Positions 25,886 through 55,597 are shown, counted from the first letter of the stretch. The stretch: DNA of 64,000 bases from a bacterium (GCA_043803945.1 JAZDJN010000042.1:32001-96000), one strand, 5' to 3'. The notes: generated by a model from the sequence alone, not told the origin. Numbers and translations: made by a program.

Positions 25886-25938
25886 TACCGGAAGGCTTTC
25901 GTTTCACTATCACCTCATTAATAATTGTGGTTAGTCCT

Positions 25939-27829: not shown

Positions 27830-27864
27830 TTCCAAGACTTCCTGGCAGTGGAGAGCAAACGACA

Positions 27865-28746
27865 GTGCTACAACCAATACCTTCTGTGACACCTTCTCGG
27901 TTATCGACAGGGCCTCTCCTGGACGACTTGACCTTCTATGCTCTGCGCGAATTTATCTATGAGCGTACCGGAATATTTTTCCCGGATAAGAAAAAATATC
28001 TGATTGAAGGAAGGCTTGGAAAACGATTACAGATACTCAAACTCGAAAGCTTCGAGGATTACATCCAATTACTGAAATATGGACGTAAGAAGGATGAAGA
28101 ATTTGATTATCTCTGCGAAGCGATCACCATTAACGAGACATTCTTCTTCCGGAATGAGCCCCAATTTGATGCGATTGAACAGACTGTTATCCCGGAGTTG
28201 GTACGTGCAAAGCAGGCCCAGCTCTCCCCCAAAATCCGCATCTGGAGTGCAGGTTGTTCCTCAGGCGAGGAGCCATACACGCTGGCAATGATATTTCTAG
28301 AATGTCTGAAACCCAAATATCCCTCCCTGAGTCTGGAAATCGTTGGGACTGATATAAACGGTTCGGTTCTTCAGATAGCACGACGGGCGATCTATAGTGA
28401 ATATTCCATTCGTAACATGCCACAGGCATTTCTTGAGAAATATTTTTCTGTTGAAAATGGCCGGTACGTGCTTCGCCCTGACTTGAAGCAGATGGTGAGC
28501 TTTCGTTATCTCAACCTCTATGATCGTACCCAGATGAAAACGATGCGCAATTTCGATATCATTCTCTGTCGGAATGTGCTCATCTATTTTGACTTAAAAT
28601 CCAAAATTCAGGTTGTTTCAGATCTCTATGGCAGCCTGAACTATGGAGGAGCACTCTTCATCGGCTATTCTGAATTACTGCATGGAATCTCGACTGCCTT
28701 TAAGGTGAAGAGCCTCGTAAAGACAACAGCATATAAAAAGGAGTAA
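27865..28746 (+). CDS. cheR: Chemotaxis methyltransferase CheR
   Basis: TINETFFFR, IRIWSAGCSSGEEPYT, GTDI, CRNVLIYF. Start uncertain (GTG 27865 preferred over ATG 27808). Confidence 0.93.
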   Translation: MLQPIPSVTPSRLSTGPLLDDLTFYALREFIYERTGIFFPDKKKYLIEGRLGKRLQILKLESFEDYIQLLKYGRKKDEEFDYLCEAITINETFFFRNEPQFDAIEQTVIPELVRAKQAQLSPKIRIWSAGCSSGEEPYTLAMIFLECLKPKYPSLSLEIVGTDINGSVLQIARRAIYSEYSIRNMPQAFLEKYFSVENGRYVLRPDLKQMVSFRYLNLYDRTQMKTMRNFDIILCRNVLIYFDLKSKIQVVSDLYGSLNYGGALFIGYSELLHGISTAFKVKSLVKTTAYKKE

Positions 28747-28755
28747 TCAAATACT

Positions 28756-29121
28756 ATGGCTACAAGTATTCTTGTTGTGGATGACTCAGCAACTGTTCGC
28801 AAGTTTGTTGCAACGGCACTGAATCTGAAGGGGTACCAGGTAATCACAGCATCGGACGGGATGGAGGCCCTTGAAAAAATGCCTCTCCAGCGGATTGACC
28901 TGATCATCACTGATCTCAATATGCCCGATATGGACGGCTTTGAGTTTATTCGGACTGTCAAAGATACACCCGAATATTGTGAGATTCCCATCATCATTCT
29001 CTCCTCCGTTTCTGATATGGAATCGAAGGAAAAAGGATTAAAATTGGGCGCTTATTCGTATGTCGAAAAGCCCTTCAGTGCCGATAAAATTCAGGAAGAA
29101 GTTCGAAGGTTCCTGGTTTGA
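28756..29121 (+). CDS. CheY-like single-domain response regulator
   Basis: VVDDSATVR..TDLNMPDMDG..LSS..EKPF. Confidence 0.9.
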   Translation: MATSILVVDDSATVRKFVATALNLKGYQVITASDGMEALEKMPLQRIDLIITDLNMPDMDGFEFIRTVKDTPEYCEIPIIILSSVSDMESKEKGLKLGAYSYVEKPFSADKIQEEVRRFLV

Positions 29122-29231
29122 TATCAAGATATTCTATTTTTTCGTCTATTTTTTGAGCATTGTTAACCAGTCAGCCTGCCAGGGGGCATTGATTGGAGGT
29201 TCAAAAAAACCATCCACTCACCTACTCCTTA

Positions 29232-29297
29232 TAGGATATTTCTTAGAGAAGAATCAAAGCGTAGCCGATTTCTTACACACCAGGTATGTTCTATATT
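29232..29297 (+). promoter_or_regulatory. Bipartite operator plus -10 element (internal promoter for cheY-cheZ-cheZ-cheA...)
   Basis: TAGG-ATATTT-CTTA-N8-TCAA-N7-CCGAT (29232-29269), then TATATT at 29292-29297. Confidence 0.6.
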
Positions 29298-29406
29298 AGT
29301 GCCAGATCCTAGAGCAGATACTATGGCAGTCAAAAAAAACTTCAAGAGCATCAATATTAAATCGAATTTCATTCCACACTCAAATCACTAGTAGAGGGGC
29401 ATCACG

Positions 29407-29799
29407 ATGCTAGCACTCAGATTCCTTATCGTCGATGATTCAATCACCATCCGACGCATCATCATCAATGCTTTAAAAGCGATTGGCTATGCGAACACGC
29501 TCGAGGCCGCCAATGGCAAAGAAGCAATGCAAAAACTGGCCGAGAACGGAATAGATTTTATTATTACCGATTGGAACATGCCGGAGATGAATGGGTTGGA
29601 ATTCACCAAAGCTGTCCGTGCAAGTAATGCAACGGCAGAGCTGCCGATTCTTATGATCACCACCCGTGGTACAGAAAGCGATGTCATCGAGGCATTGCAG
29701 GCTCGTGTGAACAGCTACATTGTCAAACCGTTCACGCCTCAGGAGCTGAGAGAAAAAATCGATGAGATATTGAAATCCATGAAAACTCAGGCTGCATAA
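29407..29799 (+). CDS. cheY: Chemotaxis response regulator CheY
   Basis: IVDDSITIRRII..TDWNMPEMNG..ITT..YIVKPF. Confidence 0.9.
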   Translation: MLALRFLIVDDSITIRRIIINALKAIGYANTLEAANGKEAMQKLAENGIDFIITDWNMPEMNGLEFTKAVRASNATAELPILMITTRGTESDVIEALQARVNSYIVKPFTPQELREKIDEILKSMKTQAA

Positions 29800-29901
29800 C
29801 AAACAGGTGGACGTGGTGAAAAAAACAATCGTAATAAGTGAACGACCAGATCTCAGCGGAAGTCAATGCTGCATGGTTCAACACGAAGGAGCGGGTACGC
29901 T

Positions 29902-30675
29902 ATGAATCCCCAACAGTTAGACAATGTCCTTCAGAAGGTTTCGGAACTGAAAGTGTTCTTCGACTTTGGCGAGCGAACGCTGCCATTGTTGGAAGAAGTG
30001 GCAACATTCACGCAGGAGATCGGCCCAGTCATAGAAGGAATCAAATCGCTGGTCGATGTCACATCGCAAAAATTGCCCAAAGCGGCGGAGCAATTAGGCC
30101 GAGTGAACCAATTTGCCGAACGGGCCTCAAATGATATCCTCAATACAGTCGATAAAATGGTGGCTACAATTGAGGGAATGCAAACACCCGATCATAACCG
30201 CGTGGTTGGCGATCTGGTCGATGATACGACTAAGAAAGTGAGTTCGATCGTAGATTCTCTGGCGAGGCGGTTTGGCAATGATGAAGACATCATCGAGCTC
30301 CTGAATGCATGGGATCTCCATTCTCAGAGCTTGAGTGCGTTAAATACGCCAACGACGATGCAAATGAAATTGGAGAGCCTCCGTGAGGATTGCACCAATA
30401 TCATGATGTCACTGCAGGTGCAGGATATCACCGGTCAGCAAATTGCTTCCGTGATCGGCTTAATGCAGGCGGTTGACGATGTCCTCCGCAAACTGCTGAC
30501 GGAGGTTTCTGATATTATCCAATTCACTCAACCCGAGCAGCCGGTTGTCATTCTTCCCTCCACGGAATATGTTGGCATGGATGAACGGAAGAAGATGGTT
30601 GATTCTCTTCTTCGGAAGGCACGAACGGGAGATCTTTCGATAGAGAACGGCGGCAGTTCAGAGAAGAATAGTTAA
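29902..30675 (+). CDS. cheZ: CheZ-like phosphatase 1
   Basis: Helical; L..V....E.A...IL..V and IMMSLQVQDITGQQI (catalytic DxxxQ); AAGGAG RBS before ATG 29902. Confidence 0.75.
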   Translation: MNPQQLDNVLQKVSELKVFFDFGERTLPLLEEVATFTQEIGPVIEGIKSLVDVTSQKLPKAAEQLGRVNQFAERASNDILNTVDKMVATIEGMQTPDHNRVVGDLVDDTTKKVSSIVDSLARRFGNDEDIIELLNAWDLHSQSLSALNTPTTMQMKLESLREDCTNIMMSLQVQDITGQQIASVIGLMQAVDDVLRKLLTEVSDIIQFTQPEQPVVILPSTEYVGMDERKKMVDSLLRKARTGDLSIENGGSSEKNS

Positions 30676-30733
30676 GTGCACGTGAACCTAGTTCTGATCA
30701 TTGAATTCAACTACCAATACTCGTAGGTATATC

Positions 30734-31372
30734 ATGGCTGAAAACAAAATTCCCGAGAAGATAATCGAAGCTGGTGCTGTTGAGAGTGTAGTGATTGCAT
30801 TGCATAAGGTCATCGACCTTCTCGACCGCATTAAAACGACAATCGAAGAAAGTTCGAATAAGATTCCGAGGGCGGCAGTCCAGTTGCATACGGTTACCCA
30901 GGCGACCGAAATGGCGACAGTCGAAATTATGAATGTGTTGGATACGATGACACATAAGTTCACCTCCCTCGAGAGCGAACTCTCAACAGTGCGTGGAATG
31001 CTGGCTTCGGAGGATGGGAATGTCATTATCGATTCTATTGAATCGACTCTCACGAAAGTCAAACAGGATATCACGAATATCATGATGGCGCTCCAGGTTC
31101 AGGATATTACCGCCCAGAAGATTGCGGCAGCGAATCACCTCATCGAATCCGTCCGGAAGGAAATTATTCATGAACTAAACTACTTCGAGAGCTCCGAGAA
31201 GGATGCTATCGAAGAGGCAATCGTGAGAAAACCCGCCGAAGACAGTGAGGATCAGGCCCACCATTTCGATAAGAATGCGTCCTTCAGAAAATCGGCAGAA
31301 CATCAGGAACGGATCGATAAAGTGGTGCAGCAATGGCGCGAAAAACAATCTGATTCCGACTCAAAAGAATAA
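30734..31372 (+). CDS. cheZ: CheZ-like phosphatase 2
   Basis: QL..VTQATEMATVEIM and IMMALQVQDITAQKI (DxxxQ). Confidence 0.75.
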   Translation: MAENKIPEKIIEAGAVESVVIALHKVIDLLDRIKTTIEESSNKIPRAAVQLHTVTQATEMATVEIMNVLDTMTHKFTSLESELSTVRGMLASEDGNVIIDSIESTLTKVKQDITNIMMALQVQDITAQKIAAANHLIESVRKEIIHELNYFESSEKDAIEEAIVRKPAEDSEDQAHHFDKNASFRKSAEHQERIDKVVQQWREKQSDSDSKE

Positions 31373-31411
31373 CGTCCGTTCCCTCACACGAGCAAAACTA
31401 TTGGAACAAGC

Positions 31412-33214
31412 ATGAGCGAAGAGATGAAAGAACAGATCGAACCGACAGCGTCCCTGGGATTTGACAATGAGATGGCAGAGATCTTCGAAAGTTTCGTGAT
31501 CGAGTCGAATGAGATCATCGAGCATCTGGGACGCGATCTTCTGGAGCTTGAAAAAACACCTGCCAACATCGAGCTCCTGCATAAGATCTTTCGGGGGATG
31601 CATACGCTGAAAGGAACATCCTCATTTCTGGGATTCAACCAGATGACTGAACTCGGTCATAGTTGTGAGGATTTACTGAATAAGCTCCGAAAAGGAGAGT
31701 TGGTTGCTACTGCGGCAATGATCGATGTTATGTTTAAAGCCTATGATATGATCAAAGTGCTGCTCGAGAGAATTGAAAAAAAGAATATGCAGCCCGTCGA
31801 CTTTTCTCACATCGTGCAGAAACTTCAGGCTGAGATTCAGGGTGCAAGCCAGGTGAAGGCACGTGAAAAAACATCCGACGGTTCAGCACAACAGGTGGAA
31901 GAAAACGCAGCAGAATCAGCGGTGGCGAGCTTTTCAAAATCAACGGATACGACAATCCGGGTCGATGTCAATCGGCTTGACGATCTGATGAACCTGGTTG
32001 GCGAATTGGTACTCGGCCGTAATCGGTTGTCTCAGGTCTCCCACAAGTTGAACGAGGAATACGAAGAGGTTCAAACTGTCAAGGAGCTGCAGGATACAAG
32101 TTCACAAATCGACTTTATTACGACCGAGCTGCAGATGGCCGTGATGAAAACCCGGATGCTGCCGGTAGCCAAAGTATTTAATAAACTTCCCCGCCTGGTA
32201 CGTGATCTTGCGAAGGAGACCGGGAAAGAGATCGATCTCCAGATTTATGGGAGAGAAACCGAACTTGATAAATCCATCATTGAGGAGCTCAATGATCCTC
32301 TGCTGCACATTATCCGGAACGCTGTCGATCATGGCATTGAGTTGCCGGATGAACGCATAAAAAACCGAAAACCACGGATTGGAACGATTGTCGTCAATGC
32401 CGAGCATGAAGGGAACCATATTGTCATTTCCATTGAGGATGATGGTAAAGGAATGGATCCTGAAATCCTCAAGCAGAAAGGGATCGAGAAAGGGCTCATT
32501 ACCCTGGAGCAGTCCAAGGAAATGTCGAAGAGAGAAATCCTTAATTTGATTTTTATTCCGGGATTTTCGACAGCACAAACCGTGACATCGGTGTCCGGGC
32601 GGGGTGTGGGAATGGATGTTGTCCGGTCCAATGTCGCAAAGTTAAAAGGCATGGTGGAAATTGACTCGGATCCCGGTAAAGGGTCCATTATCACAATCAA
32701 ACTCCCGTTGACCCTTGCAATTATTCAAGCACTTCTCGTGAGAGTCGGTACCGAAATATTTGCCATTCCACTCGGCTCGGTTCTTGAAGTAGTCCGCGTT
32801 GAGGCAAAAGAGACCCAGACAATCAATGGCCACGGGGTCATTCGCATGAGGGATATGGTGCTTCCGCTCGCTAGTATGGCGGAGGTGCTCACCAAGAATG
32901 GTCAACAGAGCAAGCCGCGCTGGTTGTATATTGTAGTGATTGCATGGGCCGACCAGCGACTCGGTGTTGTCGTTGATTCATTGCTGGGGCAGCGCGAAGT
33001 TGTGATAAAATCTCTTGGCGACTATTTAAGCAATACTCGCGGCATTGCAGGCTCGACTATCTTAGGTGATGGCAGAACGATTCTGATTATTGACGCCGGG
33101 CAATTTATTCAACTGTGTATCGAAAAACACGCTAAATCGTCACCTCAGGCAAACCTCACGGCTGAGGAGGCCTGGAGTGAGAACAACGATCACCTGGAAG
33201 GAACCTCAAGGTAG
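31412..33214 (+). CDS. cheA: Chemotaxis histidine kinase CheA (Hpt, dimerisation, HATPase, CheW; no obvious P2)
   Basis: IFRGMHTLKGTS; IRVDVNRLDDLMNLVGELV; HIIRNAVDHG; SGRGVGMDVV; LPLTLAI. Confidence 0.96.
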   Translation: MSEEMKEQIEPTASLGFDNEMAEIFESFVIESNEIIEHLGRDLLELEKTPANIELLHKIFRGMHTLKGTSSFLGFNQMTELGHSCEDLLNKLRKGELVATAAMIDVMFKAYDMIKVLLERIEKKNMQPVDFSHIVQKLQAEIQGASQVKAREKTSDGSAQQVEENAAESAVASFSKSTDTTIRVDVNRLDDLMNLVGELVLGRNRLSQVSHKLNEEYEEVQTVKELQDTSSQIDFITTELQMAVMKTRMLPVAKVFNKLPRLVRDLAKETGKEIDLQIYGRETELDKSIIEELNDPLLHIIRNAVDHGIELPDERIKNRKPRIGTIVVNAEHEGNHIVISIEDDGKGMDPEILKQKGIEKGLITLEQSKEMSKREILNLIFIPGFSTAQTVTSVSGRGVGMDVVRSNVAKLKGMVEIDSDPGKGSIITIKLPLTLAIIQALLVRVGTEIFAIPLGSVLEVVRVEAKETQTINGHGVIRMRDMVLPLASMAEVLTKNGQQSKPRWLYIVVIAWADQRLGVVVDSLLGQREVVIKSLGDYLSNTRGIAGSTILGDGRTILIIDAGQFIQLCIEKHAKSSPQANLTAEEAWSENNDHLEGTSR

Positions 33215-33225
33215 AGGACATACCT

Positions 33226-33579
33226 ATGTCGATTCGATGGATTGAACATGACGGAAAAAAAATATTACGGTGCGATTACCGGGGATTGAATATTGAGCAG
33301 TCGATAGCAATGTTTGAGAAATCGATGGCTGAGATGTCGCGCAGCGGTGATAACGTGTTAATGATCTCGAATTTTCAAGGTACAATGCTGAATTACAGGT
33401 TTGCTTCATGTGCGTATGATCTTGCAAGACTGAATTTTCGACCTAAGGCGAAGAAAATTGCTCTCGTGGGAATTGAAGGATTACAGTATGTCATTCGTGA
33501 AGCATTTGGTGTGATGAGCGGCCGCAAACCTTCTCTCTTTGAAACGGAAAACGAAGCACTCACATGGTTAGTCAATTAA
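33226..33579 (+). CDS. Small STAS/SEC14 (SpoIIAA-like) domain protein
   Basis: 117 aa; K.ALVG...and FETE.EAL.WL C-terminal signature; GAGGA RBS. Confidence 0.6.
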   Translation: MSIRWIEHDGKKILRCDYRGLNIEQSIAMFEKSMAEMSRSGDNVLMISNFQGTMLNYRFASCAYDLARLNFRPKAKKIALVGIEGLQYVIREAFGVMSGRKPSLFETENEALTWLVN

Positions 33580-33610
33580 TTAAAAAACTGTATACCCGGG
33601 TAGATGATCT

Positions 33611-34729
33611 ATGAATGGACCGATAAATGTAGTGGTGATTGATGATTCAGCGTTCATGAGGAAGTCTCTGACGCTGATGCTTGAATCCGATCCGCAGATC
33701 AGAGTAGTGGGTACGGCACGCGATGGCAGGGATGGTGTTGATAAAGTACGGAAGTTGAATCCTGACGTTGTGACCCTCGATGTGGAAATGCCGGGATTGG
33801 ATGGGCTCGCGGCACTCAAGATCATCATGAGAGAAATGCCAGTGCCGGTTCTTATGGTTAGTTCTCTTACGTCAGAAGGAGCAGAGGCGACGCTCGAAGC
33901 GTTAAATCTTGGAGCGGTCGATTTTATTTCTAAAGATCTTTCTTATGTCTCAGTCGATATTCTGAAGATTAAAGAAGAACTCATTGCCAAAGTAAAAGAA
34001 ATCGCGACCAGCCGTTATGCCCGTCTTCGGTATCAGGCACTTGGGTCAAGCCGCCACGCTGTGCGTGACACTGAAGAGATCAGTCAAAGCCGTGTTCGTA
34101 TCCCGAGCATTTTGCAGGAGAATTTGGAAGCCGTTGTTCTTGGTGTTTCAACGGGAGGCCCGTTAGCACTCCTGCAGATCATTCCGAAGCTTCCGGCAGA
34201 CTTTCCAATTGGGATCGCAATCGTGCAGCACATGCCCCCGCACTTTACACGAACCCTTTCGGAGCGGTTAAATAGCCTGAGCAAAGTTGCGGTAAAGGAA
34301 GCGGAGCATGGAGAATTGATGGAACCTGGTAAAGTGTTGATCGCTCCTGGTGGCAAGCACCTTCTCTTCTCTCGTGGTCATGGCGCAATGCAGGTCATCA
34401 TTTCGGAAGAACCGCGAACAACAATCTTTCGCCCCTCTGTCGATGTGATGATGCGATCGGCAGTTGAGGCAGCCCACGGTCCTTTGCTCGGTGTCATAAT
34501 GACCGGCATGGGGAAAGACGGTTTGGATAGTCTCAGGCTTATTAAACGGAAGGGTGGTTACATTATCGCCCAGGACGAGGAATCGTGTGTGGTATATGGC
34601 ATGCCAAGAGCAGCGGTGGAGGATGGTATTGCGGATACTGTTGTTCCTTTAATGGAAATTCCGGATGCACTTATTCGACTGGCCAATATACGCACCGCTC
34701 CTGTATCGAGCAAAGTCATTGCAGGATGA
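33611..34729 (+). CDS. cheB: Chemotaxis methylesterase CheB (REC + methylesterase)
   Basis: DDSAFMR..LDVEMP; GVSTGGP; VQHMPPHFT; FRPSVDV; MTGMGKDG; VYGMP. Confidence 0.96.
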   Translation: MNGPINVVVIDDSAFMRKSLTLMLESDPQIRVVGTARDGRDGVDKVRKLNPDVVTLDVEMPGLDGLAALKIIMREMPVPVLMVSSLTSEGAEATLEALNLGAVDFISKDLSYVSVDILKIKEELIAKVKEIATSRYARLRYQALGSSRHAVRDTEEISQSRVRIPSILQENLEAVVLGVSTGGPLALLQIIPKLPADFPIGIAIVQHMPPHFTRTLSERLNSLSKVAVKEAEHGELMEPGKVLIAPGGKHLLFSRGHGAMQVIISEEPRTTIFRPSVDVMMRSAVEAAHGPLLGVIMTGMGKDGLDSLRLIKRKGGYIIAQDEESCVVYGMPRAAVEDGIADTVVPLMEIPDALIRLANIRTAPVSSKVIAG

Positions 34730-34789
34730 GGCAGTAATCGAATACAAAATTCTATTCATAATGGAAATTCAGTAAGAAGAACCAAAACC

Positions 34790-37609
34790 ATGGAAAAACA
34801 ATTGCAGGTGTTGATACTCGAGGATATTCCGATTGACGCGGAACTCACCGAACATGAACTGAAATCGGCAAAAATCGATTGCATCGTACAACGGGTCGCT
34901 ACCAAAAGCAAGTTCATGAAAGAACTGGAGGAGTCTACCCCTGATGTGATCCTGGCGGATTTCACTCTGCCCCAGTTCTCCGGATTGGAAGCATTGCGCA
35001 TTGTCAGGGAAATGAAACTCGACATTCCCTTTATTCTGGTAACCGGAACACAGAGGGAAGAAGTCGCGGTCGAATGTATGAAGGAGGGTGCCGACGATTA
35101 TATCCTTAAAACTAGTCTGAAACGGCTTCCCGCTGCAGTTCTCAATGCCCTTAAGAAAAAAGAGGCCGAACGCGCATCACGCCGCCTAGAAACAGAACTC
35201 CAGAAATCCATCAATTATGCAATCAGCATTTTCGACAGTATTACCGATGCCTTTTTTGCCGTCGATAACGATTGGATACTGATGTATCTCAATCCCCGCT
35301 CTGATACGTTTCTCTCAAAGGTGCACAAACAGCGCGAAGATCTGTGGGGAAAGAACTGGTGGGATGAATTTCCCATTTCGTTCGAATCCGAAGCGGCAAA
35401 ACAATTGTTCCATGCAATGAACGAACGAACCGCTGTCGAATTTGAGGAATATTATCCATCGCTCGAGTCATGGCTCCACATCCGGGCTTATCCGGCTGAT
35501 CCCGGTCTTTCCATCTATGCACAGGATGTTACCGAACGGAAACTTGTGGAAAAAGTTCAACAAGCAGTCTATAAAATCTCCGAGGCAGCCAGCAATGAAA
35601 AGAGTATTGATGCCCTCTTTAAACGTATTCATGAGATCATCTGTGAGTTGATGCAAGCCAAGAATTTTTACATCGCACTCTATGATAAGGAGCGTGACCT
35701 CATTCGGTTTCCGTACTGGGTGGATGAGAAAGATACTGCACCGGGACCGCGGAAACCCGAGCGTGGAATGACAGAATATGTCTTGCGCAATGGTGTTCCC
35801 TTGCTTGCCACCCAGGAGGGTTTGAAGGATCTCGAAATCGAGATGGGAGTCTCTCCACGTGGTACCCCAAGTGTCGATTGGCTTGGCGTACCGTTGAAAA
35901 CGGTTGACGGTGTTATCGGAGTGTTGGCTGTCCAGAGCTATACGGATGGAGTCCGCTATAGCGATGTCGATAAAAATATCCTTGTCTATGTCTCAGAACA
36001 GGTTGCGATGGCAACGGAACGAAAACGGTCGGAAGAGAAAATCATTCAACAGGCCAATCTGCTCGATATCGCGCAGGATGCGATTATGGTTCTCGACATG
36101 GCGCAGAATATTCTCTACTGGAATAAAAGTGCAGAACGGATTTATGGATGGCTGGCTGAAGAAGTGGTAGGAGAAAATGCCAATCGGCTTCTCCAGAAAG
36201 ACCAGGAATCTCTTAATGCAGTCATAGCCCGCGTTCGGGAGAAAAAGAATTGGTTTGGCGAACTAAAACAGGTCACAAAGGACCATCGGGAGTTGATCGT
36301 CGAAAACCGGTGGAGTCTTGTACACGGGCAGGATGGGAAATCAGAATCTATTCTGGTGATTGCTACCGATATTTCCGAGAAAAAGCGGCTCGAACAGCAA
36401 TTCCTCCGCGCACAACGGCTTGAGAGTATTGGCACCTTAGCCAGCGGGCTTGCGCATGATCTGAACAATGTGCTGGCACCGATCATTATGGCGATTCCGT
36501 TTTTAAAGGAGAAGTTGACGGAGAAATCGGACCTCGATATCCTGGCGACACTTCAATCCTCTGCGAAACGCGGAGAAGGTATAGTCAAGCAGGTGCTCTC
36601 CTTTGTCCGTGGTGTGGAAGGTGATCGTGCCATACTTCAGACGAAACACCTGGTGGTGGAACTCGGCAGTTTTCTGAAAGAAACGCTTTCTCCTTCGATC
36701 AGAATTCAAACGAAGCATAACAAGGATCTCTGGCCGGTTCTCGGTGATGCCACCCAGTTGTATCAGGTGCTCATGAATCTCGCTGTAAATGCAAGAGATG
36801 CAATGCCCGAAGGTGGCACGCTGAAAGTTGAAGCCCAGAACCTGCCCCTGGATCAGGATGCAGCCAGCCTGTATATCGATGCCCATCCGGGCCGTTATAT
36901 CCAGTTAACCGTTTCCGATTCCGGTGCCGGTATTCCGGCTGATATTATGAATCGAATCTTCGATCCATTCTTTACTACAAAGGATCCGGGGAAAGGCACC
37001 GGGCTTGGACTGTTCACCGTGCTGACGATCGTAAAAAGCCATGGTGGTTTTGTTGATGTACAGAGCAATCCCGGTTCCGGTACACAATTTAAGATCTATA
37101 TTCCTGCCTGTGAATCGGCAGAATTGAGTCAACTGGAGGAAGGCATTGATATCCCTTCCGGCGAAGGTCAACTCGTCCTGGTTGTCGATGATGAGGTTTC
37201 TATCAGCGACCTCATTGAAATGACATTGAAGAGCCGGAATTACCGGGTTCTGACGGCAAAGGATGGAACCGAGGCTCTGGCGCTCTACATGCAGCACCGG
37301 GGTGAAATTGATGTCGTGCTGATGGATCTATTGATGCCCTACATGGACGGTTCATCAACGGTCCGGGCAATGCAAAAAATTGATCCGTCCGTGAAGATCA
37401 TCGCTATGAGTGGACTTTTGATTGATCGGCAGAGATCGTCTGATGCACTCATCAGTGACTCTATTCCGTTTATGCAAAAGCCGTTCAGCATGGAGAAACT
37501 CCTGAAAACCGTTCATGAGGTAATTCATCTTAACAATGGCTCGAACGGTTCGGACCATCCATTACACCAGGATGATGCCTTGAAATCACTGGTCGGAAAA
37601 TCGAATTGA
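34790..37609 (+). CDS. Cytoplasmic hybrid kinase: REC, PAS, GAF, PAS, HisKA, HATPase, REC
   Basis: N- and C-terminal REC; GAF (WLGVPL..GVLAVQSY); H-box LASGLAHDLNNVL; FFTTK..GTGLGL. Confidence 0.93.
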   Translation: MEKQLQVLILEDIPIDAELTEHELKSAKIDCIVQRVATKSKFMKELEESTPDVILADFTLPQFSGLEALRIVREMKLDIPFILVTGTQREEVAVECMKEGADDYILKTSLKRLPAAVLNALKKKEAERASRRLETELQKSINYAISIFDSITDAFFAVDNDWILMYLNPRSDTFLSKVHKQREDLWGKNWWDEFPISFESEAAKQLFHAMNERTAVEFEEYYPSLESWLHIRAYPADPGLSIYAQDVTERKLVEKVQQAVYKISEAASNEKSIDALFKRIHEIICELMQAKNFYIALYDKERDLIRFPYWVDEKDTAPGPRKPERGMTEYVLRNGVPLLATQEGLKDLEIEMGVSPRGTPSVDWLGVPLKTVDGVIGVLAVQSYTDGVRYSDVDKNILVYVSEQVAMATERKRSEEKIIQQANLLDIAQDAIMVLDMAQNILYWNKSAERIYGWLAEEVVGENANRLLQKDQESLNAVIARVREKKNWFGELKQVTKDHRELIVENRWSLVHGQDGKSESILVIATDISEKKRLEQQFLRAQRLESIGTLASGLAHDLNNVLAPIIMAIPFLKEKLTEKSDLDILATLQSSAKRGEGIVKQVLSFVRGVEGDRAILQTKHLVVELGSFLKETLSPSIRIQTKHNKDLWPVLGDATQLYQVLMNLAVNARDAMPEGGTLKVEAQNLPLDQDAASLYIDAHPGRYIQLTVSDSGAGIPADIMNRIFDPFFTTKDPGKGTGLGLFTVLTIVKSHGGFVDVQSNPGSGTQFKIYIPACESAELSQLEEGIDIPSGEGQLVLVVDDEVSISDLIEMTLKSRNYRVLTAKDGTEALALYMQHRGEIDVVLMDLLMPYMDGSSTVRAMQKIDPSVKIIAMSGLLIDRQRSSDALISDSIPFMQKPFSMEKLLKTVHEVIHLNNGSNGSDHPLHQDDALKSLVGKSN

Positions 37610-37632
37610 ATGTTAGGGTAAGAGGCACTGCC

Positions 37633-39228
37633 ATGGCAACGCAAACAATGTGGGATCGAAAACGTATCGGAGTCGTTCGCGACGTTACCATGTCCAATGT
37701 GACCGTTGTATTGGATTCAACCCTCACGAATCTCACTCTCCAGTTAAATGGAAAAGCATATCCGATTGGTCAAATTGGAACCTACGTACTCGTTCCTGTT
37801 GGCAAACAACTTCTGTTAGGGATGATTGCTGAATTCAGAAACAAAGGTATCCACAAGAATGGTACGATGGCACCCCATTATGAAATGGTGGTGAACCTTA
37901 TCGGAACGGTCAGAGCCGGTATGTTTGAACGGGGTGTCTCATCGTTCCCGACCGCCGATTCACCGGTGTACTTGTTGGAAGATAAGGACCTCAGCGTTGC
38001 ATTTTCTGTATTCCAACGATTTGGTTTTTCCATCGGCAGGCTTTCACTCTTTGAACATGAACGGGCTTTTCTCGATCCGAACCGGTTCTTCGGAAAACAC
38101 CTTGCAGTCGTTGGAGCAAGCGGAGCCGGAAAGTCATGCACTGTCTCGTCAATCCTGCAAAAGGTCATCGGGTATCCCGACACCAAGGTGATTATTCTCG
38201 ACATTCATAACGAGTATCGAACTGCCTTTCCGGAAGAGAGTCAGTATCTCAACCTTTCAGAGCTCGAATTGCCTTTCTGGCTGATGAATTTCCAGGAGAT
38301 GCTCGAGATGTTTATCGATACGGCAGATGAGAATTCCGCAACCCAAATTACGATACTGAAAGACCTTGTGTTCCAGGCAAAGCGTGATCAGAACCCGGAA
38401 TTAAAGAATGTATTGACCATCGATACACCGGTCTATTACAATCTCGCTGAAGTTCGCACCAAGATCGAATATCTTGATACCGAAAAGGGCGGCCCATTCT
38501 ACGGAAAATTCGCCCGCTTCCTGGTTCAACTCGATACAAAGTTGAACGATCCGCGGTACGATTTTATGTTTAAGCCACGCCTCTATATCCACTCGACAAC
38601 GATCGAGGAACTCTTGATCCGGATGTTCAGCCTGGATGGCACATCGAAGATCACCATCATGGATATGAGTGGTGTACCGTTCGATATCGTCAACACGATT
38701 GTCTCCCTGGTCGCACGTCTGGCTTTTGATTTCAATTTCTGGAATATCAACAGGCGCGAATCTCCGATCTTGCTGGTCTTCGAGGAAGCACATAATTATC
38801 TCTCGGCAACCGGAGAAGGAACGCGTGCTGCACGCCGGACGATAGAGCGGATAGCAAAAGAGGGGCGCAAATATGGTGTCAGTTGTATGATTGTCAGCCA
38901 GCGTCCTTCGGAAATCTCCGAGACAATTCTCTCCCAATGCAACAATTTTGTGGTGATGAGGCTGACCAACCCGGTGGATCAGAACTATGTGCGCCGGCTT
39001 GTGGCCGATACGTTTCCGGGATTGGAAAACCTGTTGCCTTCGCTTCGCCAGGGTGAGGCGCTGGTTGTGGGCGATGCGGTCCCGATGCCGCTCCGCGTGC
39101 TGATTGATCCGCCGAAACCGGAACCTGCGAGTGCGGATATAAAATTTTTCGATAAATGGAAACTGAGCTGTACAGCAATCGATGTGAGCGAGGTTGTCCG
39201 GCGATGGTGGCATCAAGATCGTAATTAA
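37633..39228 (+). CDS. HerA/FtsK-family (DUF87, COG0433) ATPase with N-terminal HAS-barrel
   Basis: HAS-like IG.V..GQIGTYV..FERGVSSFPT; Walker A GASGAGKS; Walker B LLVFEEAH; ERIAKEGRKYG; SQRPSE; GEALVVG; GAGG RBS before ATG 37633. Confidence 0.88.
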   Translation: MATQTMWDRKRIGVVRDVTMSNVTVVLDSTLTNLTLQLNGKAYPIGQIGTYVLVPVGKQLLLGMIAEFRNKGIHKNGTMAPHYEMVVNLIGTVRAGMFERGVSSFPTADSPVYLLEDKDLSVAFSVFQRFGFSIGRLSLFEHERAFLDPNRFFGKHLAVVGASGAGKSCTVSSILQKVIGYPDTKVIILDIHNEYRTAFPEESQYLNLSELELPFWLMNFQEMLEMFIDTADENSATQITILKDLVFQAKRDQNPELKNVLTIDTPVYYNLAEVRTKIEYLDTEKGGPFYGKFARFLVQLDTKLNDPRYDFMFKPRLYIHSTTIEELLIRMFSLDGTSKITIMDMSGVPFDIVNTIVSLVARLAFDFNFWNINRRESPILLVFEEAHNYLSATGEGTRAARRTIERIAKEGRKYGVSCMIVSQRPSEISETILSQCNNFVVMRLTNPVDQNYVRRLVADTFPGLENLLPSLRQGEALVVGDAVPMPLRVLIDPPKPEPASADIKFFDKWKLSCTAIDVSEVVRRWWHQDRN

Positions 39229-39290
39229 TAAACGAATCTGAGTGGTTCAGTACAGATTACCCGAAATTCTCTGGATCTGAAAGATCACGA

Positions 39291-40562
39291 ATGTCGAACC
39301 AAATGTCAGCAGAAGAACTGCGAAAACAGGCCAACGAGATTCTCAAGGGCGTTGACCAGTTGATTAAGGCAGGAAATCTCGATGATGCGCTGGCCCAGAT
39401 TGGGAAGGCCAAAGCCATCGATCCGAACAATGCCTATATCTACGCGTTCGAAGAGCGGATCGGATTTCTCCGGGCTGAGGAACAGAGAAAGAAAGGCGCT
39501 GACGCAGCACGAAAGCGAATGGAAGAAGAGGCGTGGAAACGCCTTGAGGAGCAGCGGCGTCGGATTGAAGAAGAACGCAAGCGAAAAGAGGAAGAGGTAA
39601 AAAGAAGGGTAGAGGAGGAGCGGAAACGAAAAGCTGAGGAATCACGCCGTATTGAAGAGGAGCAGAAGAAACGGGTTCACGTAGAACCGGTTGTCGTGAA
39701 AGCGGTCGATGAGAGACAGAAAATTGAGGAAGATACTAAACGCAAGTTTGAAGAAGATTTCAAGCGAGCCGAGGAAGAAAATAGAAAGAAAGCGGTCCAG
39801 GCAGAGGCCGCTGCCAAAAAGAGCCATGCTGCAGCAAACGATCCGCATCAGATCTATAAGAGTGTCCTTCTCCTTGCCTGGGCAGATGGTGGCCTGTCGA
39901 AGGAAGAGGAAACCCAACTGAAGGGTTTGAAACTCTCCCTCTCAATCTCCGATGACGAGGACAAGAAACTTCAACACAATGCACAGCTTGAATCGTACGC
40001 TCAGGCATTTAAACTGGCGTGGTCGGCGGGCATGAACGCCAAAGAACGGGGTTCCGTCATCCAGGAACTCAGAAAGAAATTCTTCATTACTGCTGCCGAT
40101 CAATCCAAGATTGAATCGAAACTGCTTGCAGAAATCGCACCCGATCAACAGCAACAGCAACAACTGATCCTCGTTGTCGAAGATGAAGATGCAATTCTTA
40201 AGCTGATCGTTCAGGTTCTAGAGAATTCAGGGTATACGGTCCAGGCATTCTCAACATCCGACGACGCCTATCAAACCTTGCGTGAATCCAACGGCAGCCA
40301 TCCACCCGATCTGATTCTCTCCGACGTGAACCTCGAAACCTCGTCGATGGGAGGATTCTCGTTCTATGAAAAAGTCAGGCAGCTCGACTCACTTCTTCAT
40401 GTTCCCTTTATCTTCCTCAGCGGATTAACGGATGAAGGAATGATTCGTTATGGAAAAGGATTAGGTGCCGATGATTATCTCACGAAGCCCTTTTCGAATG
40501 ACCTGCTGTTGGATACCATCAAAGGAAAACTGAAACGGTTTCATAAATTCCGCAAAGTCTAA
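39291..40562 (+). CDS. Multidomain response regulator: TPR-like N-terminus, E/R/K-rich helix, TerB-like helical domain, C-terminal REC
   Basis: AGNLDDAL..AKAIDPNN (TPR-like); long EER/KRR stretch; LLLAWADGGLSKEEE..L..L...L.IS (TerB-like ADG..EE); REC VEDE..LSDVNL..LSG..TKPF. Confidence 0.75.
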   Translation: MSNQMSAEELRKQANEILKGVDQLIKAGNLDDALAQIGKAKAIDPNNAYIYAFEERIGFLRAEEQRKKGADAARKRMEEEAWKRLEEQRRRIEEERKRKEEEVKRRVEEERKRKAEESRRIEEEQKKRVHVEPVVVKAVDERQKIEEDTKRKFEEDFKRAEEENRKKAVQAEAAAKKSHAAANDPHQIYKSVLLLAWADGGLSKEEETQLKGLKLSLSISDDEDKKLQHNAQLESYAQAFKLAWSAGMNAKERGSVIQELRKKFFITAADQSKIESKLLAEIAPDQQQQQQLILVVEDEDAILKLIVQVLENSGYTVQAFSTSDDAYQTLRESNGSHPPDLILSDVNLETSSMGGFSFYEKVRQLDSLLHVPFIFLSGLTDEGMIRYGKGLGADDYLTKPFSNDLLLDTIKGKLKRFHKFRKV

Positions 40563-40565
40563 CAC

Positions 40566-40620
40566 AGGAGGATTCTCTTCCATTCATCATCGTTTTGGTC
40601 TGGTGGTGGAGAATCTTCCT
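40566..40620 (+). terminator. Stem-loop closing the signalling operon
   Basis: AGGAGGATTCTC / GAGAATCTTCCT inverted repeat (12 bp, one G-U) directly after the stop, followed by a pyrimidine run. Confidence 0.45.
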
Positions 40621-40882
40621 CTTTCCTTCCAATGCCGTTCTAATTTCATAGGTGAACATTCTTGCTGATCAGGTGAAGTGCGCTGAAGATCCGAGCATCA
40701 CCGCGGTTACTCTGTAGCATTCGAGGCTGGTTCCAGAGTACTGGAAACAGAATGAAATTAGAGGGAATGGAACATGATGTTGGAGCAGGAGATGCTGGGC
40801 GAGATATTTACTGAACTCTTGATTCTCGATCAATACGCATATACATTCAGGCAGTGTAGTTTATCTGAAAGGACTGAGTTCA

Positions 40883-42280
40883 ATGAAATTTTCAATGTAC
40901 CTTGCACTGCCTCTTCTCCTGATTTTCTTGTGCTCTTCCTGCTCGAGGAAGAATACCCAACGACAATTCACGGGGGCAGATGGAGAGATGAAACTCATAA
41001 CGCTCGATCCCGGACATTTTCATGCGGGACTCATTCAGAAGGTGATGTATCCGCAGGTGTCTCCGGTCGTGTCTGTGTACGCACCCGTAGGCAAGGATGT
41101 GTTGGAACACTTGAAACGGATCGAGGCCTTCAATACACGAACAGAGAATCCTACACACTGGGAAGAAAAGGTCTATACCGGCCCTGACTTCTTCGAAAAA
41201 ATGCTGTCAGAGAAATCTGGGAACATTGTTGTGCTTTCCGGGAAGAATAGTAAGAAGGCGGAGTACATTAAGAGAGCGGTTGAAGCGGGCTTGAATGTGT
41301 TTGCCGACAAACCAATGTGCATCGACTCGAAGGGATTTGAGATGCTCAAGGAGGCCTTTGCTGCAGCGGAACAGAAGGGAGTCCTTCTTTATGATATGAT
41401 GACCGAACGTAGCGAGATTACCACAATACTGCAAAAAGAGTTTATGCAATTTCCCGAAGTATTCGGCGACTTAGTACAGGGAACCGAGGAGGATCCGGCT
41501 GTAATCAAGGAGAGTGTTCACCATTTCTATAAGAATGTGGCGGGGAAGCCGCTCATCCGGCCGGAATGGTTCTTTGATGTCCAGCAGCAGGGTGAGGGCA
41601 TCGTGGATGTCACCACACACCTGGTCGATCTTGTCCAATGGGAATGTTTTCCCGAGCAGCCGTTACGGCACCAGTCTGAGATCAAAGTGCTGCGCGCCAA
41701 GCGCTGGGCAACATCGTTAACGCTCGATGAATTTAGCAGAATCACAGGTGCGAAGACATTTCCAAAATATTTGCTGAAGGATGAACAAGGCAAGAATCTC
41801 GAGATGTATAGTAACGGCGAAATTCACTATACAATAAGGGGAGTTCATACGAAGATTTCCGTTACCTGGAATTTTCAGGCCCCTGAAGGGGGAGGAGATA
41901 CACATTTCTCTGTTATTCGCGGTTCAAAGTCGAATATCATCATCCAACAGGGTGAACAGGAACGATATCGTCCAGAGCTTTATATTGAGGCTTCAACGCC
42001 CGAAAAGCGGGAAGATGTTGGAGTGAGCATCGCACGAACCATCACACAACTGCAGCCCCGTTATCCGGATTTAGCCCTGGAAAAAGAGGGGAATCGATGG
42101 CATGTGATTATTTCGGATAAGTATCGGGTGGGGCACGAAGGACATTTTGGAGAGGTCACGGAGCGATACTTACGCTATTTGCGTGAAGGGCAATTGCCAC
42201 CATGGGAAGTGCCGAACATGATTGCAAAATACTATACGATCATCACAGCATATGAGATGGCTCATCGCGAGAATCGATAA
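40883..42280 (+). CDS. Exported Gfo/Idh/MocA-type putative oxidoreductase
   Basis: Signal or lipobox-like N-terminus; LDPGHFHA; NVFADKPM; DMMTER; GEGIVDVTTHLVD; GHEGHF. Confidence 0.75.
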   Translation: MKFSMYLALPLLLIFLCSSCSRKNTQRQFTGADGEMKLITLDPGHFHAGLIQKVMYPQVSPVVSVYAPVGKDVLEHLKRIEAFNTRTENPTHWEEKVYTGPDFFEKMLSEKSGNIVVLSGKNSKKAEYIKRAVEAGLNVFADKPMCIDSKGFEMLKEAFAAAEQKGVLLYDMMTERSEITTILQKEFMQFPEVFGDLVQGTEEDPAVIKESVHHFYKNVAGKPLIRPEWFFDVQQQGEGIVDVTTHLVDLVQWECFPEQPLRHQSEIKVLRAKRWATSLTLDEFSRITGAKTFPKYLLKDEQGKNLEMYSNGEIHYTIRGVHTKISVTWNFQAPEGGGDTHFSVIRGSKSNIIIQQGEQERYRPELYIEASTPEKREDVGVSIARTITQLQPRYPDLALEKEGNRWHVIISDKYRVGHEGHFGEVTERYLRYLREGQLPPWEVPNMIAKYYTIITAYEMAHRENR

Positions 42281-42478
42281 AAAAAACAAGTACCGTATCG
42301 TCTGCAATACTTATGAAAACAATGGCGAGAGACGATTTCTAATTGTGGGAAAATCCTTCATCCTCCAGTCTCCAGCAATTGGTGTCTTTTGCATTGCATA
42401 CGACTTATTACTTTAGTAGCTTCGACCCTAAAATTTCTGATCTGAAACGATCTGTAACGAACGATGGGTATTCAATTG

Positions 42479-44692
42479 ATGAAGCGACTCTTCTTCCTTG
42501 CCATCCTGCCCTGTGTACTCTTTGCCCAGGGGGTGGATATTCGAGGCGTAATCTCCGATTCAACGACAAAAGAAAAAATTCCATTTGCAAATATTTATAT
42601 TCTTGGAACCAGCAAAGGAGCTAATGCAAATGTCGATGGATTCTATCTGATTGCCAAAGTACCGGTTGGGACCTATGAAATTGCGGCAAGCGCAATCGGG
42701 TATGGACGAAAAGTAGTGAAGGTCACTGTCAGCGGCAACGCTCCTATTGTTCTGAATTTTCTCCTTCCATCACGGGCAGTGGAATCGGAAGAAGTCCTTA
42801 TTTCGGGCTCAAGAAAATTCGACCGGGCTGAGATGCGTGTCAGTACCCATGTGATCGAGAAAGAAGATGTGCGGCAGGTGCCTATGCCGGTCCAACCGGA
42901 TATCTTTCGATCATTGAAGATGCTTCCTGGGATCGTCTCAACCAGCGATGTTAACTCCCAATTTCATGTACGCGGCGGAGCGGGGAATCAAAATTTAATC
43001 CTGTTCAATGGGATTAAAATCTATAATCCTTTCCATGCATTTGGTATCTTCAGCCTTTTTGATCCCGACATTATCCGCAGTACCGAGGTATTTACCGGAG
43101 GATTTCCACCCGGGTATGGGAATCGGCTCTCGTCTGTCATTTCCATGTCAACCAAAGATGGTCGCCGTGACGGAATCGGCGGAAAAGCAAGCGTGAACTT
43201 TATTTCGGGAAAACTCATGGTCGAAGGGCCGCTCCCAAAAGATGCATCTTTTGTCGTCAATGGACGCCAGTCTCTTTTCTCAAGCACCTTCAAACGGTTT
43301 CTTGATAAGGATGTACCTCTTTCCTTCTATGATTTTTTCATCAAAGGTTCTATGCCGCTCGGCGGAGAGGCGTACTTCCGTACTCATGCATTGCTGACCT
43401 CCGATGAACTCAATTCACCGAATATTGAAATGCCATCATACCGTTGGCGCAATAAAGCGTTTGGGATATCACTTTCAGGGTTGTTTATGGACCGCTCCTA
43501 TTTTTTTACCGAGGTGCAGTTGGATGAGTACTACGCTGAGAGCAGGCCGAATCACTCTCAGGGAACACCGGCTTCCACAAAGGTGAAGGATGGGTGGGTA
43601 CGAGCTGAAGCAACATACTATACCGATACTCAGGATCAATTATTTGCCGGCTTTGAAACATCCATGATGAACTTCGAGAATGAATTCACCAACAGCTATG
43701 GTGTCAAACGCACCCTCGATGATAACTTGTTTCAAATGAATGCATGGATGCGCTTGCAGAAAACGATGAAAAACAAACAAATTGATTTTGGATTCCATGT
43801 AGATATCCCGAGACTATTCAAATCGATTCTGGGCAGCGGGTTTTCCATCTACGATATCCAACCTCGCATGAATTTGAACTACACAATTGCATCGTGGCTC
43901 CGATGGAAAGCGACTTACGGATTCTTCACACAAAAAATCGTAACCATCGCAAATGAGGATGATGTCATTTCTCTCTTCGAATCTTGGATGCCAATACCGG
44001 GGGATCTTAAGATCGAGCAGTCGCAGCATGTTGTTATTGGCATGGAAGCATCACCAACGCCATGGATCGTCACCACGCTGGAGGGTTACTATAAAGACTT
44101 TGGTTCATTGGTGAGTTACAATAGAGAAAAGGTTGATGCGAATGATCCGGATTATATTAATGCCACAGGGAATGCGTATGGGGTGGAGGCACTGCTCCGG
44201 TATGGCGATCGGATGATCGACCTTTACCTGACCTATTCTTTGGCCTTTACCACCATCGATGCAAATGGATTTGTCTATCCACCGCGCTACGATCGAAGGC
44301 ATAACATCAACGCTATGATCGTTCTTCATCCCATACCGCGGCTCGACGTTTCATTCCGCTGGGAGTTTGGCAGCGGGCTTCCTTTCACACAATCGTTCGG
44401 CTATTATGACCGTTTCTCGTTGCCAAGGATTAACGAAGGAAGTATCCTCAATGAAACAGGCAAGCCATATCTTGTGTTGGGAGAAAAGAATGCCGCCCGG
44501 ATGCCTGCATTCCACAGGCTCGATATCAGCGGAAACTATAGATTCTCCATCAACGCCATCCAGGTGAATCTGGGAGGAAGTATCATTAATGTCTACGACC
44601 GGAAGAATGTTTTTTACTTTGACAGGAAATCAGGAAAACAGATCAATATGCTCTCCTTCTTCCCGTCACTAATGATAGAGATGGAGTTTTAA
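42479..44692 (+). CDS. TonB-dependent outer-membrane receptor (carboxypeptidase-regulatory-like N-domain + plug + barrel)
   Basis: Signal peptide; G.I.DS.TKE.IPFANI; plug LPGI..VRGG..QN; YDRRH; HRLDIS; NVYDRKN; terminal F. Confidence 0.9.
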   Translation: MKRLFFLAILPCVLFAQGVDIRGVISDSTTKEKIPFANIYILGTSKGANANVDGFYLIAKVPVGTYEIAASAIGYGRKVVKVTVSGNAPIVLNFLLPSRAVESEEVLISGSRKFDRAEMRVSTHVIEKEDVRQVPMPVQPDIFRSLKMLPGIVSTSDVNSQFHVRGGAGNQNLILFNGIKIYNPFHAFGIFSLFDPDIIRSTEVFTGGFPPGYGNRLSSVISMSTKDGRRDGIGGKASVNFISGKLMVEGPLPKDASFVVNGRQSLFSSTFKRFLDKDVPLSFYDFFIKGSMPLGGEAYFRTHALLTSDELNSPNIEMPSYRWRNKAFGISLSGLFMDRSYFFTEVQLDEYYAESRPNHSQGTPASTKVKDGWVRAEATYYTDTQDQLFAGFETSMMNFENEFTNSYGVKRTLDDNLFQMNAWMRLQKTMKNKQIDFGFHVDIPRLFKSILGSGFSIYDIQPRMNLNYTIASWLRWKATYGFFTQKIVTIANEDDVISLFESWMPIPGDLKIEQSQHVVIGMEASPTPWIVTTLEGYYKDFGSLVSYNREKVDANDPDYINATGNAYGVEALLRYGDRMIDLYLTYSLAFTTIDANGFVYPPRYDRRHNINAMIVLHPIPRLDVSFRWEFGSGLPFTQSFGYYDRFSLPRINEGSILNETGKPYLVLGEKNAARMPAFHRLDISGNYRFSINAIQVNLGGSIINVYDRKNVFYFDRKSGKQINMLSFFPSLMIEMEF

Positions 44693-55544: not shown

Positions 55545-55564
55545 TGTGAGAACTGATACAAAGG

Positions 55565-55588
55565 AGCCCCGACTCGAAAGCCGGGGCT
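55565..55588 (-). terminator. GC-rich stem-loop between the hydrogenase large subunit and the protease (partial terminator or mRNA stabiliser)
   Basis: Minus strand AGCCCCGGCT-TTCG-AGTCGGGGCT with a weak U-tract. Confidence 0.5.
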
Positions 55589-55597
55589 TGGGTGAAT

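Follow-up and report, generated by a model that had tools for sequence, protein, structure and literature searches.

Organization of the hHK-HerA-XREC locus

We describe a three-gene unit at the end of a chemosensory (che) operon, which encodes a hybrid histidine kinase (hereafter hHK), a HerA-family ATPase, and a response regulator (hereafter XREC). The unit lies in the window G000:C42:32001-96000, the whole stretch of 64,000 nucleotides (nt) analyzed here, and window positions are used throughout. The genome is 5.5 Mb, rated 100% complete, and its relatives carry names of Ignavibacteria or Bacteroidota. A Pfam scan of the open reading frames (ORFs) showed that almost all genes at 4621-40562 are on the + strand and encode signalling proteins. 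The final part of this run is arranged as follows.

29866-30675 and 30701-31372, + strand: two tandem CheZ-like paralogues (Pfam CheZ 2.1e-10 and 1e-8, both above the cut-off)
31412-33214, + strand: CheA, the sole copy in the genome (Pfam Hpt, H-kinase_dim, HATPase_c, CheW)
33226-33579, + strand: protein of 117 amino acids (aa) between cheA and cheB (no Pfam family at 0.01)
33611-34729, + strand: CheB, methylesterase and receiver (Pfam CheB_methylest 7e-64, Response_reg 4e-22)
34790-37609, + strand: hHK, hybrid histidine kinase (Pfam)
37633-39228, + strand: HerA-family ATPase (Pfam DUF87/HerA_C; ATG at 37633)
39291-40562, + strand: XREC, response regulator (Pfam REC 8e-21)
40566-40620, + strand: terminator-like hairpin closing the unit (-27.7 kcal/mol, z = -3.9)

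An earlier note, made from the DNA sequence alone, had described the last three genes as closely spaced behind cheB and closed by a stem-loop. The ORF coordinates give gaps of 60 nt (cheB-hHK), 23 nt (hHK-HerA), and 62 nt (HerA-XREC), all between co-oriented genes, and none of 200 shuffled sequences folded as well as the hairpin. The hairpin, followed by a pyrimidine-rich tail, was missed by the consensus terminator scan. Over 27000-42500, consensus scans gave no more hits than shuffled sequence, with 22 promoters versus 19.8 in shuffles, by a sigma-70 model that may not suit the phylum, and 13 terminators versus 14.0. Pfam and PADLOC scans detected no Sir2, nuclease, or NurA family among the neighbours of HerA, in agreement with the note's statement that no Sir2 or nuclease partner adjoins it. 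Likewise, no flagellar or pilus family was found by Pfam in any ORF scanned across the window.

Metatranscriptome data were available from three runs of one study, and only the groundwater run X1 had contigs on the locus. Eight RNA contigs from X1, at least 99% identical to the DNA, lie on cheB, hHK, HerA, and XREC. One of them, a 619-nt contig at 39229-39847, starts at the first base after the HerA stop codon and runs into XREC; contigs do not mark transcript starts.

Co-inheritance of HerA with the che operon

The locus was compared across 86 genomes of the same family. HerA homologues fall into two classes separated by a gap, the orthologues at 75-82% identity (91% for one partial copy) and the paralogues at 67% or less. 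Orthologous HerA is present in 24 of the 86 genomes, from 6 genera: the genome of the window, G087, three of six genomes of g41, one of three of g9, 15 of 16 of g17, and all three of g5. In each of the 23 other genomes, an XREC homologue lies directly 3' of HerA on the same strand. CheA is located 4-7 kb upstream of HerA on the same contig in 20 of them, and the remaining three loci are at contig breaks. The three genes are not neighbours by chance. All eight loci with enough flanking sequence share the order CheZ-CheZ-CheA-(117-aa protein)-CheB-(small kinase or CheY)-hHK-HerA-XREC; hHK is directly 5' of HerA, and a methyl-accepting chemotaxis protein (MCP) often comes after XREC. Neighbouring genes in the orthologous loci are 16-93 nt apart.

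Measured by identity across the orthologous units, HerA (75-82%) is the best-conserved gene, compared with XREC (47-61%), hHK (52-58%), CheA (56-62%), and CheB (58-64%). No genome carries orthologous HerA without orthologous CheA, and within g41, g9, and g17 the two orthologues are both present or both absent. This co-presence and co-absence indicate that the che operon and the three downstream genes have been gained and lost as one unit. The che and receiver neighbours, whose conservation the earlier note had proposed to check, are conserved around the HerA orthologues. It had been set down beforehand that closest homologues in unrelated contexts would speak against the proposal, and every homologue of at least 75% identity was found in the same context.

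HerA is also followed by an XREC-type gene in another family of the same order, f9, represented by three genomes of two genera. In all three (L023 G040:C2, L171 G032:C7, and G102:C6), an XREC-type protein is encoded 1.5-3.1 kb 3' of HerA on the same strand. This protein is shorter, 321-345 aa, and consists of a hairpin, a TerB-like bundle, and a receiver. The gene order is HK, REC-HD_5, REC, REC, a lipoprotein-like ORF of 123 aa, HerA, and the short XREC-type regulator; in G040, a kinase, a REC-HD_5 protein, and two single receivers lie upstream of HerA. The f9 loci have no che genes, and their HerA falls outside the che-linked clade (L023 in the tree). Among 26 other non-che HerA loci scanned, only the f9 loci have an XREC-type protein nearby. 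The f9 order is an independent hint for a link between HerA and XREC.

HerA is an intact ring ATPase

HerA matches the Pfam families PF01935 (DUF87; 122.9 bits against a cut-off of 23.2, 2.6e-35) and HerA_C (24.8 bits against 22, 1e-5). The motifs GASGAGKS, LLVFEEAH, KEGRKYG, and SQRP can be read in the translation and are invariant in nine aligned relatives, which agrees with the note's description of an intact HerA; we take their roles to be those of Walker A, Walker B, arginine finger, and sensor. A C-terminal tail, RWW..Q, is also invariant among the aligned relatives. HerA residues 2-530 align to positions 2-574 of the 576 in the PADLOC HerA profile PDLC04105 (493 bits). Since this profile aligns over its full length, the N-terminal region, where the HAS barrel would lie, appears homologous by sequence alignment. 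Together, these features describe a ring ATPase that is catalytically intact and strongly constrained.

None of the more specific NCBIfam models reached its cut-off. The anti-phage HerA models NF042944 and NF042943 scored 417 bits (cut-off 850) and 167 bits (cut-off 800), and the helicase_HerA model NF040819 scored 127 bits against 970, so that the repair equivalogs were missed as well. In a sequence search of solved structures, the nearest chains were 9c1m (347 bits), 8ziq (329 bits), 8xau (308 bits), and 8wiv (277 bits), followed at a distance by the Sir2-HerA chain 8j4u (111 bits) and Sulfolobus HerA 4d2i (102 bits). 8XAU and 9C1M are identified, in passages of the corresponding reports, as HerA of DUF4297-HerA systems (PMC11291478; bioRxiv 10.1101/2024.10.24.620088).

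Domain structures of hHK and XREC

The domain order REC-PAS-GAF-PAS-HisKA-HATPase_c-REC that had been read from the hHK sequence was recovered by Pfam, with GAF_2 at residues 271-408, HisKA at 548-608, HATPase_c at 652-773, and two PAS_4 stretches. The scores of HisKA (29 bits), HATPase_c (82.7 bits), and Response_reg (131 bits in two stretches) class the protein as a hybrid histidine kinase. Its match to the NCBIfam CckA-like model, 347 bits, is below the cut-off. PADLOC returned two weak matches in the receiver regions only, PD-T4-6 (4.2e-5) and PDC-M60B (7.7e-5).

In XREC, Pfam recognizes only the receiver (REC, residues 293-410; PF00072, 74.7 bits). An AlphaFold model from an 18-sequence alignment (pLDDT 82) predicts a helical hairpin (residues 7-43), a long charged helix (48-123) that resumes after a disordered stretch (143-178), a five-helix bundle (185-286), and the receiver (292-422). 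The hairpin, bundle, and receiver are conserved among the orthologues, and the linker varies greatly in length and composition. In the receiver, the 18 sequences share D298, D345, and K399 without exception, and at least 90% of them keep S377. Foldseek superposes this domain on the receivers of PhoB and CheY with TM-target values of 0.86-0.91, as expected of a response regulator.

A fold search with the whole XREC model returned receiver domains only, and the mid-domain was therefore modelled separately (pLDDT 87). Residues 1-291 gave only a weak TPR match among solved structures (1elw, 3e-4). The Pfam TerB profile gave no match on residues 185-290 at E ≤ 10, and PF05099 (TerB) matched nothing in the genome at E ≤ 0.01, with control genomes positive. 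The fold matches of the bundle lie within the noise of helical bundles: the top hit in Foldseek is the TerB structure 2ou3_A at E = 0.28, and VIA gave ENT (Z 7.7), TIC110 (Z 7.7), and TerB (Z 5.5). A profile of the bundle matched 843 representative proteins. Among 24 homologues sampled from 150 listed, several are assigned by Pfam to Tic110, TerB (72.7, 38.7, and 34.4 bits), or ENT, and some carry a C-terminal HNH domain, others a receiver or a cyclase. It is thus reasonable, through transitive homology, to regard the XREC bundle as TerB/Tic110/ENT-like at the superfamily level, not as a member of a family. Of the architecture read earlier, TPR/charged-helix/TerB-like/REC, the receiver and the charged helix stand, and TerB-like applies only through intermediates and weak fold matches. 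Five distant bundle homologues (P0132, P0142, P0185, P0200, and P0238) have three to six TerB/Tic110-like repeats and a C-terminal HNH endonuclease. PADLOC found no defence family in XREC.

Most genomes of the family also encode full-length XREC paralogues (38-45% identity). Their neighbours are mixed, with no shared partner: CDP-alcohol phosphatidyltransferase in four of 10 loci, and GT2, GHL10, and LexA-like genes in two each. The CDP-alcohol phosphatidyltransferase lies beside paralogues at L055, L056, L057, and L067, and together with the glycosyltransferases it may point to the processes under the control of these regulators.

A chemosensory pathway in a genome without flagellar genes

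The genome contains a single CheA, with one match each in the CheA search and for PF02895. FHIPEP/FlhA and FliG_C were not detected in this genome, and control genomes were positive. The complete che core (MCP, CheW, CheR, CheY, CheA, and CheB) is therefore present without flagellar export or rotor genes, consistent with the non-flagellar, alternative-function pathway that the earlier note had postulated. Since the genome has five T2SSE-type ATPases, the pathway may control type IV pili.

FlhA is present in 10 of the 86 family genomes. All 10 belong to a set of 11 genomes in which the homologous che cluster stops at CheB and has no hHK, HerA, or XREC; flhA and the che cluster share a contig in five of the 10. 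The remaining genome of this set, G075 (81% complete), lacks FlhA. FlhA is also missing from all 25 genomes with an extended che cluster. The CheA of the window is 56-60% identical to those of the flhA-linked clusters of relatives. A tree of CheA and CheB, with the short clusters as root, groups the extended clusters into a single clade (support 100).

HerA homologues of Ignavibacteria lie beside phospho-signalling genes

The HerA of the che operon had been called an orphan. This description did not hold, as two paralogues with 63-66% identity are encoded in the same genome, one of them paired with a GAF-PP2C phosphatase (SpoIIE phosphatase, 1e-42; another contig, L015). The HerA clade is present in 80 of the 86 family genomes at one to four copies each (E ≤ 1e-150), and its commonest context is a SpoIIE/PP2C phosphatase of about 410 aa directly 5' of HerA. 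The N-terminal 205 residues of this phosphatase resemble the GAF domain of GAF-SpoIIE proteins in an Atlas structure comparison (TM 0.64-0.68), and a HAMP-cyclase adjoins the PP2C-HerA pair in some loci. Regarding the che operon, the 117-aa protein between cheA and cheB, syntenic in G042, G044, G046, and G087 only, has a faint SpoIIAA-like (STAS) match (E = 0.011). A STAS-like protein in this position is notable because paralogous HerAs pair with a SpoIIE-type phosphatase.

We surveyed the neighbourhoods of 36 Ignavibacteria-type HerA loci (at least 48% identity), and a signalling gene adjoins HerA in 31 of them. SpoIIE/PP2C is upstream in 14 loci, hHK upstream with XREC downstream in 11, a REC-kinase or other two-component genes upstream in four, and a cyclase downstream in two; the remaining five have no signalling neighbour (sucD/ndk, DUF6051, POT/BrkB, or unknown). 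Beyond this clade, HerA identity is 40% or less. There, SIR2_2 is upstream in 11 loci, a protein of about 390-405 aa without a Pfam family in six, and neither in the others. A Gammaproteobacteria clade (L104-L128; Methylococcales, Sedimenticola, and relatives; 36-39% identity) has no Sir2 or DUF4297 neighbour, lies beside housekeeping genes (FeoB, PNPase, RF3, FliL), and may be another non-defence lineage.

In a HerA tree of 94 sequences (IQ-TREE quick, LG+G4; two partial rows left out), the Ignavibacteria HerAs are monophyletic (SH-aLRT 99). The che-linked HerAs form one derived clade (support 100), sister to orphan and REC-kinase-linked copies (98). SpoIIE-linked HerAs occupy two positions, one of them deep, which suggests that pairing with the phosphatase is ancestral; the ancestral partner in the clade was probably the GAF-PP2C phosphatase. 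The next clades outside Ignavibacteria are Sir2-linked. Compared with NurA-, Sir2-, and DUF4297-linked HerAs, the grouping envisaged in the earlier note, the clade of the che-linked HerA adjoins phospho-signalling genes instead. The Ignavibacteria clade has departed from the Sir2/DUF4297/NurA setting, and its present neighbours are mostly phospho-signalling enzymes.

Possible role of HerA in the che pathway

We lean towards a functional coupling of HerA to hHK/XREC. In our reading, hHK-HerA-XREC is a conserved three-gene signalling module. It is co-inherited with the single che pathway of Ignavibacteria that lack a flagellum, and it is probably connected to that pathway. In a mechanism compatible with these genes, CheA and/or hHK would set the phosphorylation state of the XREC receiver. 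XREC would then bind the HerA ring through its hairpin, coiled-coil, and TerB-like bundle and switch the ATPase or translocase activity; alternatively, the hHK receivers may bind the ring. Such binding is modelled on that of NurA, Sir2, and DUF4297 in known systems. The ring would perform the work of the pathway on a substrate. That HerA is the output motor of the pathway, gated by phosphorylated XREC, is a tentative proposal, possible rather than probable. With the same reserve, we suggest that after the loss of the flagellum one lineage may have re-used its sole che pathway, adding hHK, XREC, and the HerA motor as a phosphorylation-governed output.

Several observations weigh against this coupling, and some of them fit a different account, in which HerA was inserted once between hHK and XREC and persists by operon inertia, doing the same housekeeping job as its paralogues, hHK and XREC being an ordinary two-component pair. 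In genome G086 (98% complete), the extended che cluster lacks HerA, and 89 nt separate hHK from XREC (L080, G086:C55:1-16000). G086 nests inside the HerA-bearing subclade of the CheA and CheB tree (support 100), which indicates that HerA was lost secondarily while hHK-XREC was kept. Since G086 retains cheB-hHK-XREC, HerA is dispensable for that pair. Two HerA genes are broken by a frameshift into two overlapping frames, one in G016, beside an A-run (L065 9468-9514), and one in G102 (G102:C6:75733-77345), either of which may be decay or an assembly error. Only five positions are fixed differently between the che-linked HerAs and their paralogues, none of them in the N-terminal 200 residues, and there is thus no sign of a re-tooled partner surface. 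Some paralogues lie in housekeeping contexts, next to sucD/ndk in L016 and L095 and POT/BrkB in L171, and XREC paralogues in 13 other loci have no HerA, che, or kinase genes within 10 kb. In the window, no Hpt protein other than the CheA P1 domain was seen that could serve a relay from the C-terminal receiver of hHK. No X1 contig bridges a gene junction, hHK-HerA and HerA-XREC included, and DNA carry-over in the library is possible. Since the extended clusters form one clade, their correlation with flagellum absence amounts to approximately one evolutionary split and is suggestive, not statistical. Against a passive insertion, however, HerA has kept its position in 24 genomes of 6 genera while its neighbours diverged to 47-62% identity, and it is the most conserved gene of the unit. 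The order of HerA followed by an XREC-type gene also recurs in a separate lineage, and 31 of 36 clade loci have signalling neighbours. We consider this account quite unlikely.

The direction of signalling could also be the reverse of the one we propose. HerA may be an input, the ring sensing a DNA or nucleotide state and modulating PP2C in the ancestral pair, or hHK/XREC in the che operon, thereby feeding the che/two-component network. In the Sir2-HerA and DUF4297-HerA systems, the effector bound to the ring is activated once the ring has responded to a cue. The closest solved relatives of our HerA are the DUF4297-HerA rings 9c1m and 8xau, and the next clades in the tree are Sir2-linked. Moreover, the partner gene is 5' of herA in DUF4297-HerA systems, as are PP2C, the REC-kinases, and hHK here. 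However, sensing by these rings would be an analogy with the Sir2/DUF4297 systems, XREC lies downstream and carries predicted protein-binding modules, the che operon already has three MCP inputs, and gene order does not settle the direction. We consider an input role unlikely. A role in anti-phage defence, with XREC or hHK replacing Sir2/DUF4297 as the partner of HerA, would be in line with the strong PADLOC match (493 bits), with the origin of the nearest solved structures and nearest outside clades in anti-phage systems, and with distant relatives of the XREC mid-domain in which TerB-like modules are joined to HNH nucleases. We rejected this reading as highly improbable, since both anti-phage equivalog cut-offs were missed (417 versus 850 and 167 versus 800), no SIR2, DUF4297, or other effector family adjoins HerA, and the clade is near-universal (80 of 86 genomes), family-restricted in the tree, and found in stable chromosomal contexts, not patchy or island-like. 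G+C content is even across the window, and the inheritance of this HerA is tied to the che operon.

Relation to known HerA systems and chemosensory pathways

HerA rings are known from DNA end resection and phage defence, where they work with nucleases or NADases. Among these systems, DUF4297-HerA (8XAU-8XAY, 9C1M) has the HerA closest to ours by sequence (308-347 bits), with the same full-length architecture including the C-terminal end, and follows the same two-gene logic with the partner encoded beside the ring. Its partner is a DUF4297/Cap4-like nuclease, whereas here a hybrid kinase and a response regulator are found. In addition, DUF4297-HerA is patchy in distribution, while the Ignavibacteria HerA clade is vertically inherited and near-universal in the family. 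SIR2-HerA (8J4U, 8SU9) shares the HerA ring ATPase, and the Sir2-linked HerAs are the nearest clades outside Ignavibacteria. However, it contains a SIR2 domain, of which there is none in the window, and the similarity to 8j4u is only 111 bits. HerA-NurA, represented by Sulfolobus HerA (4D2I), belongs to the same superfamily and has the same catalytic motifs, but its partner NurA is absent from the Pfam-scanned ORFs of the window, and the score to 4d2i is 102 bits. Closer to home, the GAF-PP2C and HerA pair of Ignavibacteria belongs to the same HerA clade and also places a ring ATPase beside a phospho-signalling enzyme. It differs from the che-linked genes, which form a separate derived clade (support 100) with two-component partners in a che operon.

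On the chemosensory side, the locus resembles alternative-function pathways such as Wsp, Frz, and Dif in having a full che core in a genome without flagellar export or rotor genes, and extra output-type genes at the end of the operon. Known outputs of such pathways are cyclases, polarity switches, and polysaccharide enzymes. Searches of full texts, excluding subscription journals and supplementary files, gave no paper that connects HerA/DUF87 with nearby SpoIIE, chemosensory, or kinase genes, and no report of a HerA/FtsK-type ATPase in an alternative-function che pathway. The three genes extend the known theme of HerA plus a partner and that of alternative chemosensory pathways, and they are not a new kind of machine.

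The broader observation is a whole HerA clade, vertically inherited in one bacterial class, that lies beside phosphatases, kinases, cyclases, and response regulators, with one branch inside a che operon of bacteria without a flagellum. If HerA did become a phosphorylation-governed output of the che pathway, the Ignavibacteria clade, with its PP2C, REC-kinase, and cyclase neighbours, would be the first in which HerA serves signal transduction instead of DNA repair or immunity. A functional link would give HerA a new regulation, by phospho-signalling, and alternative chemosensory pathways a new kind of output or input. It would also provide a concrete case of the fate of a che operon after flagellum loss.

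Other genes of the window

The genes upstream of the CheZ-like pair complete the run of signalling genes.

4621-19619, + strand: five PAS-rich histidine or hybrid kinases, among them a 1637-aa protein with about six PAS domains, together with one single receiver and one LuxR-type response regulator, immediately 5' of the che genes
19951-21744, 21768-23549, and 24113-25885, + strand: three MCPs (Pfam MCPsignal 1e-53 to 1e-54, 4HB_MCP_1, HAMP)
23555-24049, + strand: CheW (Pfam 7e-43)
25927-26313, + strand: TonB_C protein inside the che cluster (Pfam TonB_C 1.4e-18)
26396-27829, + strand: HEAT-repeat protein of 477 aa inside the che cluster (Pfam HEAT_2 3.9e-49)
27808-28746, + strand: CheR (Pfam 4.9e-57)
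28756-29121 and 29407-29799, + strand: two single-domain CheY-like receivers (Response_reg 2e-30 each)

The HEAT-repeat protein and the tandem CheZ pair are kept in related che clusters, flagellar ones included. Farther downstream, on the - strand, 55086-58047 encodes the large and small subunits of a NiFe hydrogenase and the maturation protease HycI. Beyond the hydrogenase genes lie a MarR regulator and genes for Fe-S/molybdopterin oxidoreductases (58236-63653).

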